Shown here in pieces: positions 2,595 through 47,449 of a stretch of DNA of 64,000 nt (its first letter is position 1; each line of letters starts with the position of its first letter). The translations under genes and the position numbers were made by a program. The DNA lies in the NCBI GenBank assembly GCA_965231105.1, contig OZ246417.1, forward strand, positions 832,908 to 896,907, read 5' to 3'. The notes under the pieces are model-generated. The model made no database searches and was not told the DNA's origin. It saw only the letters and a list, made by a program, of their open reading frames with translations. This DNA is from an uncultured Candidatus Saccharibacteria bacterium (lineage in GTDB: Bacteria; Patescibacteriota; Saccharimonadia; Saccharimonadales; JACDBH01).

Positions 2595-4130
2595 ATGTCA
2601 CAGCCAGGAACTTCACCAAATGTAATGCGGGATTCACCTACATCCGAAGTTTTTGACTCGCCCCAGGCTCCTCGACATCCTAGCCGCTTACGACATTACC
2701 TTCTCGGTGCCTCTGCACTGAGCATGGGAATAATGGGGGCTACGGCTATAGAAGTGTCGTATGCGGAAAGAGCAAGTGCTGCGCCAGATTTCGGTGCCTG
2801 TCCAAATGGGGGTGTCCCTTTGCCTGCTACATGGCATGATAAAAACTCAAATGGTGGCATGGATTATGGTGAAGTAGCGTGCTGGGATGAAGAAGCAGGG
2901 AGAGTGGTGCCTTATATACCCCCCGAAGAGGATTCTTACGGTACAAATTTTCAGATAAACCGTGAACCTTCGAGCTTGCATATTATTGAGCCACAACGCT
3001 TAGTAGATACGCGGCAAGTGAATAGCCCGCATAAAAAACTTGGTAGTGGTAAATACCTGGATGTCGCGGTAGTAGGAGGCGAAGTCCCCACGGATGCCTC
3101 GAGTGTGTACTTAACGGTCACGATTGCAGGCGCAACTAACCCAGGCTATGTTACGGCTTATCCAACTGGTACTGCTCGGCCTGAAACCTCTAGCCTAAAT
3201 GCAAATGCTGCTGGCGAAGATATTGCTAACCTCGTAAATGTGCCAGTGGGACAGGATGGCAAAGTAAGGTTGTATTCAAGTAACGGTGCTCATCTTATTG
3301 TTGACGTGGTGGGTTACTTTAAACCAGCCACTAACCCTGAAAAAACAGCTTCAGCTGGTCGTTATGAACCACGAGTTGTTAAAAGACTAGAGGATACGCG
3401 ACAGCCCGGAGAGTTACCGCTTTTTGACGGTGAGGAGAGGGAAGTCTACGTTGGTGATTTTTGTGATCCGAATAAATTCGGCGCGATTTTGCTTAATGCA
3501 ACTGTAACGCGCCACAACGGAAACGGGTATCTAGTAGTTTTTGCTGGAGATGAACAAAAGCCTAAAACCTCGAACGTTAATTTTAGAACTGGGCAAGATG
3601 CGGCGAACGGAGTCATTGTTGCGATGAGCCCAGAAGGAACAATAAAGCTTGAGATGAATGTCTCCGATCCAGATCCAAAAAATGCAGGGAGTGGAGATGT
3701 ACTCCTGGATGGTGCGGGTTGTATAACTAACGACACCGCCCCTCAATCACAAAACGGAATGTTTAGAAGTGTACTGCCAGTGCGATTACTTGATACTCGA
3801 TCTGGTGCAAAAATGAAATCAGGTGATTCTCGATATATACAAGTTGAAGGTCGACCAGGTTTTGATTTCCCAATCTCTGCGGTGGTAGGAAATGTCACGG
3901 GAACGCAAACTGAACGCTTTGGTTATGTAACCGTAGACTCACAGGGGAATGTTGATACTTCTGCTCTTAACCTAACACCTGGTCTAACGAAGGCAAATGG
4001 AGTAGCAGTTCCAAATTCGCAGAATGGGGATAAAGACGGGGTATTTGTACAGGTTACAGGGATAGATGCACATGTTATTTTCGATGCAACGGGTGGATTC
4101 ATTGCTGCGCCCGAACAAACTGGCGAGTAG
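2595..4130 (+). CDS. Secreted protein with three ~115 aa 'LxDTR' repeat modules
   Basis: Start chosen at the ATG preceded by AAGGGAGG; the track ORF starts at 2565. Hydrophobic N-terminal segment. Three repeats begin RLVDTRQ, RLEDTRQ and RLLDTRSG, each ending in a GYF/GGF-like strand. Confidence 0.7.
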   Translation: MSQPGTSPNVMRDSPTSEVFDSPQAPRHPSRLRHYLLGASALSMGIMGATAIEVSYAERASAAPDFGACPNGGVPLPATWHDKNSNGGMDYGEVACWDEEAGRVVPYIPPEEDSYGTNFQINREPSSLHIIEPQRLVDTRQVNSPHKKLGSGKYLDVAVVGGEVPTDASSVYLTVTIAGATNPGYVTAYPTGTARPETSSLNANAAGEDIANLVNVPVGQDGKVRLYSSNGAHLIVDVVGYFKPATNPEKTASAGRYEPRVVKRLEDTRQPGELPLFDGEEREVYVGDFCDPNKFGAILLNATVTRHNGNGYLVVFAGDEQKPKTSNVNFRTGQDAANGVIVAMSPEGTIKLEMNVSDPDPKNAGSGDVLLDGAGCITNDTAPQSQNGMFRSVLPVRLLDTRSGAKMKSGDSRYIQVEGRPGFDFPISAVVGNVTGTQTERFGYVTVDSQGNVDTSALNLTPGLTKANGVAVPNSQNGDKDGVFVQVTGIDAHVIFDATGGFIAAPEQTGE

Positions 4131-44093: not shown

Positions 44094-45005
44094 TTAAGTA
44101 ATTTGGTCAAGCCTATCATCGCTAGCATGAACAAAGATGCGATGAAGCCAGCGACGTTCACTGTTCCTAGTGTTGGGTCGAAAAGGGCTTCGGCTGTGCG
44201 GTGTAAGCTTATTCGGTATAATAAGCATCTCTCCTGGCTCAAGCCGTATGTCAGTGGCAATTCCGCCCAACGTTTGGCGAACATTTGTAAGAGCAGCTTT
44301 AGCCGCTTCATGATCGTCGGCGATACTCATATCAGTACCGAGTCGGATGATTGGCTGACCATCTTCTTCCTCTATAACGGGACTGACTCGCTTATCAAGA
44401 TCTTCTTCAACTCGACCGCGGTAAAAATTGTAGCGGGGTTCTCGCAATACTTCTATATCAGCCTCGCTCAAGAGACTAAGGAGTCGTGGAAAATGAGCGA
44501 CACGCGTTGAAGCAAGTTCATCATTCCTTATGCACGCCAACATAACTGTGTCAGGAACTTGGCTGAAGTTTGGGTTATATGCTTGATCGGTATGGAATTC
44601 GAAATTTTGAGTAGACCCATAGCTTGAGTTGGGACGCTCCAATGCATCATCTCGTGGGAAGATATCCTGAATAATAACCCCATCGCGCTGGTCTTTTAGC
44701 CCGAAAGCTTGGCCGTACGAAGAGGCAATCGTAAGGTGGAGTAATCCTAATCTACTCAGGCCCTGTTCACTGGCGGGGCCATATGACGCAGGAGTGGGCA
44801 GGGCATAACCCCGAGTAAAACGACTTCGTTGCTCTTCTGAAAGCTCAAAGATAGTTGCAGTTTCAGGCGTTGATTGTCGTAACGGAGCATTCTGTGCTAC
44901 CCATAATGCTGCTTGTTGCTGGTTTCCGGGCGCAAGTAATTCGGCGTCTGCAGATAATGCAAAGCCAATAAAAACATCATTAACGGGGAGCCGTTCTATA
45001 TTCAT
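44094..45005 (-). CDS. Fe(II)/2-oxoglutarate-dependent oxygenase, TauD / clavaminate-synthase-like
   Basis: 303 aa with FEFHTDQAY (HxD facial-triad motif) and a distal TPHSRSPFRP (His/Arg). Assigned by motif pattern only. Confidence 0.5.
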   Translation of the reverse strand: MNIERLPVNDVFIGFALSADAELLAPGNQQQAALWVAQNAPLRQSTPETATIFELSEEQRSRFTRGYALPTPASYGPASEQGLSRLGLLHLTIASSYGQAFGLKDQRDGVIIQDIFPRDDALERPNSSYGSTQNFEFHTDQAYNPNFSQVPDTVMLACIRNDELASTRVAHFPRLLSLLSEADIEVLREPRYNFYRGRVEEDLDKRVSPVIEEEDGQPIIRLGTDMSIADDHEAAKAALTNVRQTLGGIATDIRLEPGEMLIIPNKLTPHSRSPFRPNTRNSERRWLHRIFVHASDDRLDQIT

Positions 45006-45866: not shown

Positions 45867-46271
45867 ATGCCGTCATTTGATTTTGGTGGGAAGCTCGTGA
45901 GACATAAGATACCCCAACGTATGCGGGAAAATGGTACAAGAGTAGACACTACTACGGTAAGGGGCGAGCGGCTTGAGCATGCACTCGACGAAAAGTTTGA
46001 TGAGGAAAGTGATGAGCTGCGAAAAGCGCGAACGAGAGAAAAGAAATTAGGCGAAATCGTGGACGTCATGCAAGCACTCTACGATATGGCGAAGGTACAA
46101 TGTGGGGTGGGCGAAGAAGAGCTGGATGAACTACGGCAGGCAAAGGAAAGGGAATTTGGTGGGTTTTCTGCGGGAGTCTGTGTTGAAGTGGTTACCATGA
46201 CAGACGAGGATCCGTATGTAGAGCATTGCCGAAACAATCCAGATAGATATCCAGAGGTAGGTCAGGTATAA
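45867..46271 (+). CDS. MazG-like / PRA-PH-like nucleotide pyrophosphohydrolase
   Basis: GKLVRHKIPQRM... and an EExxE-rich helix DEKFDEESDEL...EIVDVMQALYDMA. Confidence 0.45.
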   Translation: MPSFDFGGKLVRHKIPQRMRENGTRVDTTTVRGERLEHALDEKFDEESDELRKARTREKKLGEIVDVMQALYDMAKVQCGVGEEELDELRQAKEREFGGFSAGVCVEVVTMTDEDPYVEHCRNNPDRYPEVGQV

Positions 46272-46284
46272 TGCCTGTTCGTAA

Positions 46285-46361
46285 CAGGGTGTAGCTTAGT
46301 TGGCTAAAGCGCAGGGCTGGGGGTCCTGAGACCGGAGGTTCAAGTCCTCTCACCCTGACCA
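46285..46361 (+). tRNA. tRNA-Pro (anticodon GGG)
   Basis: C1:G72 acceptor CAGGGTG/CACCCTG, anticodon loop CTGGGGG, GGTTCAAGTCC T-arm, encoded CCA. Confidence 0.85.
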
Positions 46362-46376
46362 TGATAAGATATAGGT

Positions 46377-47057
46377 ATGTGGCAAAAACAAAACAACCAG
46401 TTATACAAAGAATTTACCTTTAAAGACTTTAAAGAAGCCTTCTCCTTTATGGAGCAGGTGGCTAAAGTGGCGGAGCGGTTAAACCATCATCCACGTTGGC
46501 TTAATGAGTGGAATAAAGTCCAGTTTTGGTTGTTCTCTCATAGTGCGGGAGAAATTACTGAAAAAGACGAGCAGTTAGCCAAGGAAATAGACCATCTCTT
46601 TGAGCATCTACATAGGCTTAAAGAAGAAGCACCATTGCCGCAACTTGATGAGATAAAAATCTTTGCCGATGGTGGCTCGAGAGGCAATCCTGGACCGTCT
46701 GCAGGTGGCTTTGTTATCTTGGATATGGAAGATAACGTTGTTAAAAAGTCTGGTAAATATTTAGGCTTCACCACCAACAATCAGGCTGAGTACCATTCTA
46801 TTAAGGGTGGTTTAGAGGCTGCTATAAAGATGAATGCACGCACGGTGCATGTGTATATGGACAGTATGTTGGTCGTAAATCAGATGAAGGGTATTTTTAA
46901 GGTTAAGAACCGGGATCTTTTGCCCATCCATGATGCCATCAAAGCCCTCACCACGCAGTTTCAATACGTAGAATTCACGCATGTTCCTCGGGAGCTCAAC
47001 AAACTTGCTGATGCGGTAGTCAACGAAACGCTCGACGCCGAAGCTAAAAAAGCATAA
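46377..47057 (+). CDS. Fusion protein: pterin-4a-carbinolamine dehydratase (PCD/DCoH)-like domain + RNase H domain
   Basis: N-terminal half: FKDFKEAFSFMEQVAKVAERLNHHPRW...V.F.L.SH (PCD signature). C-terminal half: FADGGSRGNPGPS...NNQAEY...MDS...NKLADA (DEDD RNase H pattern). Confidence 0.75.
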   Translation: MWQKQNNQLYKEFTFKDFKEAFSFMEQVAKVAERLNHHPRWLNEWNKVQFWLFSHSAGEITEKDEQLAKEIDHLFEHLHRLKEEAPLPQLDEIKIFADGGSRGNPGPSAGGFVILDMEDNVVKKSGKYLGFTTNNQAEYHSIKGGLEAAIKMNARTVHVYMDSMLVVNQMKGIFKVKNRDLLPIHDAIKALTTQFQYVEFTHVPRELNKLADAVVNETLDAEAKKA

Positions 47058-47060
47058 ACG

Positions 47061-47069
47061 TGGTATAAT
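47061..47069 (+). promoter_or_regulatory. Candidate extended -10 (TGgTATAAT) for rnpB
   Basis: Ends 6 nt before the inferred RNase P RNA 5' end. Confidence 0.4.
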
Positions 47070-47075
47070 AAGGCT

Positions 47076-47415
47076 GTCAGGTTACCGGCTGATCGCGCGA
47101 AGGTTTACCTTTGCGAGGAAAGTCCGGGCAGCGCAGGGTAGTGCTGTTGCTAACGGCAACCGAAGGAAACTTCAGGGAAAGTGCCACAGAAACGAAACCG
47201 CCTGTTTACAGGTAAGGATGAAACGAGTGGGGTAAGAGCCCACAGCATCTCATGGTGACATGAGACGAAGGTAAACCCAGTACGCTGCAAGGAGAACATG
47301 TTCCATTAAGGTTACCCGCCGGAGCATTTTCATAAAAACCGCTTGATATGTCGAGTAATCGGCACGCTAGATAGATGATCGGCTAAAACAGAACCCGGCT
47401 TACTAGTAACCTGAC
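47076..47415 (+). ncRNA. rnpB: RNase P RNA (bacterial type)
   Basis: GAGGAAAGTCCGGGC and ACAGAACCCGGCTTA universal motifs. The terminal P1 pairing is GTCAGGTTAC...GTAACCTGAC. Confidence 0.85.
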
Positions 47416-47420
47416 ATAAA

Positions 47421-47449
47421 AAATCCTCCTGCGTAAGGAGGATTTTTCT
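47421..47449. terminator. Bidirectional terminator between rnpB and rplT
   Basis: AAAAAATCCTCC-TGCGTAA-GGAGGATTTTTCTTT. Confidence 0.65.

Follow-up and report, generated by a model that had tools for sequence, protein, structure and literature searches.

Why would a bacterium with a minimal genome join a pterin enzyme to its ribonuclease HI (RNase HI), and do the two halves of such a protein serve one function or two? The question is raised by a single gene in a 64,000-nucleotide (nt) stretch of DNA (hereafter, the window) from an uncultured Candidatus Saccharibacteria bacterium (assembly GCA_965231105.1, contig OZ246417.1, positions 832,908 to 896,907 of the forward strand), in which a domain of the pterin-4a-carbinolamine dehydratase (PCD, or DCoH) family is followed by an RNase H domain. 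R-loops and RNA primers are cleared by RNase HI, and mycobacteria reportedly depend on that activity to grow. In Saccharibacteria, episymbionts of ultra-small size whose genomes are minimal, any domain that has been retained is informative, and no pterin-dependent hydroxylase is known from this group. An initial annotation of the window proposed that the PCD domain had been repurposed as a nucleic-acid- or partner-binding module, analogous to the hybrid-binding domains of other RNases H. Following up this proposal computationally, we found that the architecture is common in Saccharibacteria, that the catalytic residues of both domains are conserved in the great majority of fusions, and that the same RNase H gene carries other, unrelated modules in related genomes. 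The reading that we narrowly favour is that of a bifunctional polypeptide with two independent activities, in which the PCD domain is an exchangeable passenger module.

Architecture of the fusion and its PCD active site

The fusion gene lies on the forward strand at positions 46377 to 47057 of the window and encodes, from an ATG start, 226 residues followed by a stop codon. In agreement with the initial annotation, Pfam matches, the open reading frame (ORF) and residue checks all place a PCD-like domain, a short linker and a complete DEDD RNase H domain in this one frame. The short-form PCD/DCoH domain comprises residues 1-75 (46377 to 46601), as delimited by Pfam (PF01329), PDB alignment, an AlphaFold2 (AF2) model and conservation; the linker comprises residues 76-92 (46602 to 46652), marked by low conservation and the lowest predicted local distance difference test (pLDDT) values of the model; and the type 1 RNase H domain, of the Rv2228c/Halo-RNase HI/LC11 subtype, covers residues 93-226 (46653 to 47054) according to Pfam, PDB and Foldseek. 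Pterin_4a (PF01329) matched residues 2-74 over profile positions 18-91 of 91 (E 1.1e-25, 89.9 bits against a gathering cut-off of 26), RVT_3 matched residues 98-217 (E 1.1e-22, 80.6 bits against 21.6), and RNase_H matched residues 93-203 (E 2.8e-10, 41 bits against 25.8). NCBIfam recognized the same two halves, but every curated model stayed below its cut-off for the fusion protein. The best of these matches was to the bifunctional RNase H/acid phosphatase model NF005567 (134.5 bits against 326), which aligned through its RNase H part only (profile positions 4-136 of 378), its C-terminal CobC/histidine-phosphatase part remaining unmatched.

A first explanation to be weighed is that a PCD gene and an rnhA gene only appear as one because of a frameshift introduced in sequencing or assembly, or that the frame is a chance ORF. 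No observation spoke for either. A protein identical to the window fusion (P0001) is present in independent public data, and 314 distinct full-length fusions, pooled from all sequences that we collected and originating from many samples and assemblers, keep the single-ORF architecture, as the initial annotation's view of a single gene would have it. Relatives also occur in 175 species-level genomes, and in the window ORF no in-frame Met is found between residues 25 and 117, leaving the RNase H domain with no ATG start of its own just upstream. A two-gene artefact was thus ruled out by the identical protein and the many single-ORF fusions, and we give it a vanishingly small probability.

The PCD-RNase H architecture is common in Saccharibacteria. 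The best 120 matches in a search of 5.8 billion proteins, reaching down to 63% identity, all combined PF01329 with PF13456/PF00075, and among GTDB contigs (one genome per species) at least 175 stretches carried a relative of the fusion, our sequence sample being biased to relatives of two query proteins. The best 80 of these 175 stretches matched the query from residue 1 or 2 to residues 220-226 at 56-77% identity, in records almost all titled Saccharibacteria, Saccharimonadales or Saccharimonadia. Two fusion-bearing contigs bear other labels, Candidatus Dormiibacterota (L020) and Burkholderiaceae (L071); the latter resembles a Candidatus Saccharimonas locus (L077) and is probably a binning or labelling error. 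Automated pipelines have already labelled the architecture, several matches carrying the JGI label "pterin-4a-carbinolamine dehydratase/ribonuclease HI", and current annotations name the protein by one half, either 4a-hydroxytetrahydrobiopterin dehydratase or ribonuclease HI. The initial annotation had allowed that the fusion might prove to be both common and characterised: common and automatically annotated it is, but in the literature, a 2022 RNase H review included, we found no description or characterisation of it.

The nearest PDB sequence to the C-terminal half was the RNase H domain of Mycobacterium tuberculosis Rv2228c (3hst; E 1.4e-28, ~42% identity), followed by the metagenomic LC11-RNase H1 (3u3g/4h8k) and then Halobacterium RNase HI (4e19). 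Alignment to 3hst assigned the DEDD tetrad to D98, E138, D162 and D212, in the motifs DGG, NNxAEY, MDS and LAD, and the corresponding forward-strand codons were checked in the sequence (46668-46670, 46788-46790, 46860-46862 and 47010-47012, respectively). The tetrad was intact in 313 of the 314 fusions, the lone exception being an alignment gap at the last position, and no substitution in it was observed. By Foldseek, the RNase H part superposed on 3hst, 4e19 and 4h8k with template-modelling (TM) scores of 0.89-0.95 and root-mean-square deviations (rmsd) of 0.9-1.6 Å (TM 0.93 and rmsd 1.3 Å for 3hst; 0.93-0.95 and 1.1-1.3 Å for 3hst and 4e19 together), and on E. coli RNase HI with a TM score of about 0.65. 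In the subtype formed by the RNases H of Rv2228c, Halobacterium and LC11, both the basic protrusion and the active-site His seen in E. coli RNase HI are missing (PMC9719913). By its closeness to that subtype, the catalytic domain of the fusion, about 130 residues in size, is predicted to adopt the fold without a basic protrusion.

The full-length AF2 model, built with 58 family members as input, had a mean pLDDT of 92.7 and a predicted TM score (pTM) of 0.67, a combination that we read as two well-folded domains whose mutual orientation is not confidently fixed. In this model the C-terminal helix of the PCD domain extends to about residue 84, a loop follows at residues 85-91 and the canonical RNase H fold begins thereafter, with the lowest pLDDT block (77) at residues 81-90; Foldseek returned no solved entry spanning both PCD and RNase H. 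Across 200 fusions the linker (~17 residues) is hypervariable, and mean top-residue frequency was 0.31 in the linker versus 0.68 in the PCD and 0.77 in the RNase H domain. Mean pairwise identity among the 200 fusions was 60% for the PCD and 69% for the RNase H domain, and the identities of the two domains were correlated (r = 0.75), as would be expected from inheritance of both domains together.

Is the N-terminal half, then, still a pterin enzyme? In the whole-protein search its nearest PDB sequence was human PCD2 (4c45; E 8e-20), and when residues 1-84 were searched alone they aligned gap-free to 4c45 (E 4e-21), mouse DCoHm and rat DCoH; acRAF (4low) was a weak PDB sequence match to the window protein. 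The 80-residue solved short-form chain 1uso spans residues 2-75 of the fusion, indicating that the 17 absent N-terminal profile positions represent an optional N-terminal helix and that the fold is not truncated; a PCD domain made dead by N-terminal truncation was therefore ruled out. The missing helix also fits the shortfall against the PCD equivalog models of NCBIfam (NF002018, 83.3 against 108 bits; NF002017, 68.6 against 80; NF002020, 75.6 against 146). AF2 predicts a beta-beta-alpha-beta-beta-alpha fold for residues 3-84 (strands at 3-5, 8-14, 40-44 and 47-52, helices at 18-35 and 62-84; pLDDT 85-94), a fold seen in the model and with no separate fold-search match, the Foldseek ranking holding RNase H chains only.

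The active-site motif of the fusion, E-x3-HHP-x5-W-x9-H-x8-D, is intact and begins within the sequence ERLNHHPRW at residues 33-41. Its E33, H37, H38, P39, W45, H55 and D64 line up gap-free with 4c45, 1ru0, 3hxa and 1uso, and the aligned solved PCDs have identical or similar residues at these positions (W45 faces Tyr in PCD2). We take the catalytic-type positions to be Glu57, His61, His62, Tyr69, His79 and Asp88 in mammalian numbering, and the window residues fit the COG2154 signature reportedly defined by Naponelli et al. in 2008, [EDKH]-x3-H-[HN]-[PCS]-x5,6-[YWF]-x9-[HW]-x8,15-D. On the forward strand, the codons of the His triad lie at 46485-46487 (H37), 46488-46490 (H38) and 46539-46541 (H55).

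Conservation of these His residues, a point raised by the initial annotation, could be followed across the family. In 58 close relatives H37, H38, P39, H55 and D64 are invariant, alongside core fold residues, and the His triad is intact in 296 of the 314 fusions (94%), the window protein included. The PCD domain is thus apparently catalytically complete, with an intact pterin pocket, and, given this pocket, is most likely still able to bind and dehydrate a ligand of the 4a-hydroxy-tetrahydropterin type. Judging from these sequences, purifying selection appears to maintain its catalysis in most lineages, this one included, and yet catalysis appears dispensable. The idea that PCD chemistry has been superseded here and the domain repurposed finds little support in a family whose catalytic residues are its best-conserved PCD positions.

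Exchange of N-terminal modules at an orthologous locus

An exhaustive search of 1.84 billion representatives at 50% identity yielded 136 proteins at E <= 1e-30, and many of them carried something other than a PCD domain in front of the RNase H. From the representatives listed, we took the 118 that had one RNase H domain only and an N-terminal extension exceeding 45 residues; clustering of these extensions gave 54 NUDIX, 16 ASCH-like and 14 PCD extensions, along with many small groups. Other modules identified by Pfam were GNAT, PNPOx, AAA_33-like P-loop, CutA1, nucleoside 2-deoxyribosyltransferase-like (NDT-like), HD, SET, PCC/DUF296, cyclase and WYL, while several extensions had no Pfam match. 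At least 13 other Pfam families thus serve as N-terminal module of the orthologous RNase H in other Saccharibacteria, and with so many alternatives PCD is not a dedicated partner of this enzyme. Among the non-PCD representatives, RNase H domains up to 70% identical to that of the window protein stand behind a different module (68-70% in GNAT- and PNPOx-fused forms); whole-protein identity between the window fusion and the other PCD-fused representatives was 42-57%.

The genomic neighbourhood is shared as well. Pooled across contigs, each as far as it extends, the gene order was L28 (-), M50 peptidase (+), tRNA-Pro(GGG), X-RNase H (+), where X stands for the N-terminal module, rnpB, rplT-rpmI-infC (-) and a ComM-like Mg-chelatase gene (-). 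Synteny at this same locus was confirmed for six module classes, namely ASCH, GNAT, NUDIX, P-loop, PNPOx and a Pfam-unassigned class that is ASCH-like by clustering, and in contigs with other modules rnpB lies 8-84 nt downstream of X-RNase H. Shared neighbours across module classes identify these as orthologous RNase H genes that differ in their N-terminal module. On a neighbour-joining tree of the RNase H domain, poorly resolved because it is drawn from 130 residues, the module classes are intermixed; together with the identities given above, this suggests that the module has been replaced repeatedly.

Taken together, these results are what lead us to favour, narrowly, the passenger reading. 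The C-terminal 130 residues would supply this Saccharibacterium with its housekeeping RNase H of type 1 and the N-terminal 75 residues would be a complete short-form PCD, dimerising probably as PCDs do, with the flexible, fast-evolving linker joining two domains that most likely act independently. The RNase H gene holds a fixed place in Saccharibacteria and is almost always translated as a fusion whose module X varies by lineage; with no separate start site for the RNase H part, module replacements would survive only as in-frame fusions. Within a large clade, the PCD module would have been inherited vertically with RNase H, its catalysis being lost occasionally.

The same data bear on the proposal that the PCD domain, as a dimer with a TBP-like beta-sheet saddle, was recruited for RNA:DNA binding and compensates for the absent basic protrusion. 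The nearest solved RNase H relatives do belong to the subtype without that protrusion, and some other RNases H are known to bind their substrate through an N-terminal domain (PMC9719913); moreover, some of the alternative modules are nucleic-acid-related (ASCH, WYL, PCC, SET). The PCD domain is, however, acidic family-wide (mean net charge -4.1 and isoelectric point 5.5 over 314 sequences; -2 in the window protein), the window fusion has no HBD- or dsRBD-type Pfam match, and the conserved residues are those of the pterin pocket rather than of a basic surface. In sister lineages plainly enzymatic modules (NUDIX, GNAT, HD, cyclase) stand in its place, and the LC11 enzyme, Sto-RNase HI and the Rv2228c N-domain work without an extra binding domain. 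With an acidic domain and at least 13 other module families on the same gene, the analogy to hybrid-binding domains drawn by the initial annotation does not hold up well. We consider a hybrid-binding function very unlikely; the PCD domain has more the look of an interchangeable passenger than of a clamp built for nucleic acids.

A functional coupling of the two halves, either through a pterin-type ligand that regulates RNase H or through modules that use RNase H products in nucleotide or cofactor salvage and house-cleaning, in an organism without de novo nucleotide synthesis, would also account for a fusion. The NUDIX, HD, NDT-like, P-loop kinase-like and ASCH modules are nucleotide or nucleoside enzymes by family annotation, and the identities of the PCD and RNase H domains co-vary. 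Yet PCD, CutA1, SET, PCC, cyclase and PNPOx fall outside any single nucleotide-salvage theme, the hypervariable linker and the lack of confident inter-domain packing in the model speak against coupling, and the co-variation of identities is no more than simple co-inheritance would produce. Coupling is therefore an unlikely explanation in our view. We also considered a role in anti-phage defence and dropped it, as no PADLOC-DB family matched the window protein at E <= 0.001 and sibling proteins had only generic domain-level matches.

Some matches of the representative search depart from the two-domain plan altogether. One protein of 554 residues (P0139) consists of four tandem complete PCD domains, all with HHP, between a signal-peptide-like N-terminus and a C-terminal hydrophobic segment; this repeated PCD protein is possibly secreted or membrane-anchored and is unrelated to the RNase H fusion. 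Others, of 480-930 residues (P0136, P0149, P0153, P0217, P0228, P0232 and P0246), contain 2-3 tandem RVT_3-type RNase H domains, P0136 having an N-terminal SAP domain too, and represent a distinct multi-RNase-H architecture within the same domain family.

Degenerate PCD domains and a possible need for a module

Two observations weigh against a simple passenger. The close RNase H relatives nearly all carry an N-terminal module of 50-230 residues, and stand-alone RNase H forms appear only among the most distant matches, so that the RNase H could need a partner domain, not merely tolerate one. Furthermore, 18 of the 314 fusions (~6%) lack the full His triad and nevertheless keep the domain, which on a neighbour-joining tree of short domains amounts to about 8 independent events. 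In one small subclade (HHYP) His38 is replaced by Tyr, in another (ST[DEG]E) His55 is replaced by Asp, Gly or Glu, and in P0123, P0124, P0142, P0146 and P0249 the N-domain is 18-35% identical to the window PCD and has lost the His residues. The N-domain of P0146 goes unrecognised by Pfam, and its gene is still found at the orthologous locus, on a 770-kb Saccharibacteria contig. Such loss of the catalytic His residues, with the domain kept, suggests that these lineages, at least, retain it for something other than catalysis.

Among close PCD variants P0123 is the most degenerate, with HHP changed to YYP and the third His to Asn. Its gene (997-1707) lies on a 2.1-kb contig (L090), directly downstream of an rve_3 integrase fragment (358-654). 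We ruled out a His-less clade around this protein: it is an isolated divergent sequence, and the proteins nearest to it (58% identity) have the usual PCD-RNase H form. At an HHYP locus (L076), an extra tRNA-Pro(CGG) lies just upstream of the fusion gene, besides the usual tRNA-Pro(GGG) (2181-2256 and 3662-3738).

These observations open the possibility that the PCD domain serves chiefly as a structural element, for dimer or tetramer formation or for the docking of a protein partner, its catalysis being incidental. The RNase H would thereby become oligomeric or be tethered to some other machinery. Persistence of domain and fusion through the His losses, the degenerate yet syntenic P0146 and the module carried by nearly every close relative all argue for it, and CutA1, PCC, PNPOx, GNAT, NUDIX and NDT modules are typically oligomeric. 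Precedents exist in the binding of HNF1 by DCoH and in the PCD-like Rubisco assembly factors of plants and cyanobacteria. PCD-like proteins that have no PCD activity and act by protein binding are indeed documented (PMC5972614). On the other side, a pure scaffold would not need the active site, whose residues are the best-conserved PCD positions in 94% of the fusions, and the conserved positions are those common to solved canonical PCDs, with no extra conserved patch seen. We regard a mainly structural role as possible but rather doubtful. The partner-binding role offered by the initial annotation fares accordingly: the His-less lineages and the near-universal module lend it some substance, and the conservation of the active site in the remainder of the family takes away from it.

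A wider proposal, which we advance tentatively, is that the housekeeping RNase HI of Saccharibacteria is an obligate chimera whose modules have been swapped repeatedly beside rnpB, the need for a module being selected (for oligomerisation, for tethering, or for a coupling between the removal of hybrids and the house-cleaning of metabolites or nucleotides) and not a product of neutral drift. If this is true, the PCD-RNase H of the window would be one allele of a modular 'RNase H hub'. For the window protein itself we retain, by a narrow preference, the bifunctional polypeptide with PCD as a passenger.

Gene surroundings and known systems

The initial annotation had placed the fusion ORF directly upstream of rnpB, and the gap is indeed only 19 nt. 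The rnpB gene, encoding a class A bacterial RNase P RNA, lies on the forward strand at 47077 to 47418 (Rfam RF00010, 245.3 bits, full length) and is followed immediately, on the same strand, by a strong intrinsic-terminator-like hairpin with a 12-bp stem and a T run (47419 to 47447). Just past the ORF stop and 7 nt before the rnpB 5' end is a perfect match to an extended -10 element, TGGTATAAT (47061 to 47069, forward strand). In related loci rnpB adjoins the RNase H gene in 87 of 89 cases (median gap 34 nt), on the same strand in 71 of the 87 and on the opposite strand in 16 (L001, L004, L005, L007-L009, L011, L018, L021, L033, L041, L049, L062, L071, L075 and L082). In either orientation it always has the RNase H gene on one side and the convergent rplT-rpmI-infC operon on the other, and the inversion looks like a small, recurrent event affecting a single RNA gene. 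Irrespective of rnpB orientation, a -10-like element occurs within 25 nt of its 5' end in 67 of the 87 loci, and an extended -10 in 50. Given these elements in most loci, and its inversion in 16, rnpB appears to be independently transcribed. A functional link to rnpB through co-transcription is thus unsupported, the adjacency being that of a conserved synteny block.

Upstream of the fusion gene, and ending 15 nt before its ATG, is a forward-strand tRNA-Pro(GGG) gene (46285 to 46361; ARAGORN, Rfam RF00005 62.5 bits). A tRNA-Pro(GGG) also precedes the gene in 39 of 49 related loci, where its distance and orientation vary. A consensus scan placed a promoter-like site before the tRNA (TAGATA-17-TATAAT, 46244 to 46272, forward strand, 10/12 matches); promoter-like sites in the region are no more numerous than expected from shuffled sequence, so this one, weakly supported as it is, marks a possible start of a tRNA-Pro/PCD-RNase H transcript. 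Besides transcription of rnpB from its own extended -10, the fusion mRNA may also lie within one read-through transcript, flanked by two structured RNAs. Farther upstream, on the reverse strand between rpmB (L28) and the M50 gene, a 303-residue TauD/TfdA-family Fe(II)/2-oxoglutarate dioxygenase is encoded at 44094 to 45005 (Pfam E 1.2e-11); it is absent at that position in four related contigs (L083, L085, L089 and L091) and probably reflects an insertion specific to this lineage. Between the M50 gene and tRNA-Pro, in a variable slot, is a forward-strand ORF of 134 residues (45867 to 46271) with no Pfam match, which gene calling in an independent assembly (L093) also recovers.

As a gene, the fusion is an RNase HI joined to an unrelated enzyme, which is a kind already known; the exchange of modules at a fixed locus is the more interesting result. 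The window protein offers a testable case for the role of a canonical-looking PCD in an organism not known to have pterin-dependent hydroxylases, and for the dependence, if any, of this RNase H subtype on an accessory domain. More widely, the pattern amounts to a natural experiment on the assembly and exchange of multidomain proteins in streamlined genomes, and cautions that such fusions are poor evidence that both of their halves share one pathway.

The closest parallel is found in mycobacteria, in Rv2228c and MSMEG_4305 (RnhC), where, as in the window, an RNase HI is fused to an unrelated small-molecule enzyme, and which hold the closest solved RNase H domain. The partner there is a C-terminal CobC acid phosphatase of the histidine-phosphatase fold, restricted to Actinomycetales, whereas that of the window protein is an N-terminal PCD in Saccharibacteria. 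The RNase H and CobC domains of MSMEG_4305/Rv2228c have been reported as functionally dissociated in vivo and as differing in evolutionary rate, with a variable linker between them (PMC7466739). With the PCD/DCoH family (PF01329, COG2154; 4c45, rat DCoH 1dch, 1uso) the window protein shares the motif, the predicted fold and the short form, but its PCD domain is fused to RNase H rather than standing alone and falls below the NCBIfam equivalog cut-offs.

Among RNases H, the hybrid-binding domain (HBD) of eukaryotic and Bacillus halodurans RNase H1, the dsRHbd of Thermotoga RNase HI and the TBP-like domain of RNase HIII precede the catalytic domain in the same accessory-linker-catalytic order as in the window protein. 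The accessory domain of the latter, however, is not a basic nucleic-acid-binding fold but an enzyme fold, acidic and conserved in its catalytic pocket, and, unlike theirs, it is interchangeable with many unrelated enzymes. Finally, in inactive PCD-like proteins such as plant type 2 PCD/RAF2 and cyanobacterial acRAF, the PCD fold was kept for protein binding (PMC5972614). The degenerate fusions P0124, P0142, P0146 and P0249 resemble these proteins, whereas the window fusion, along with 94% of its family, keeps the catalytic residues.

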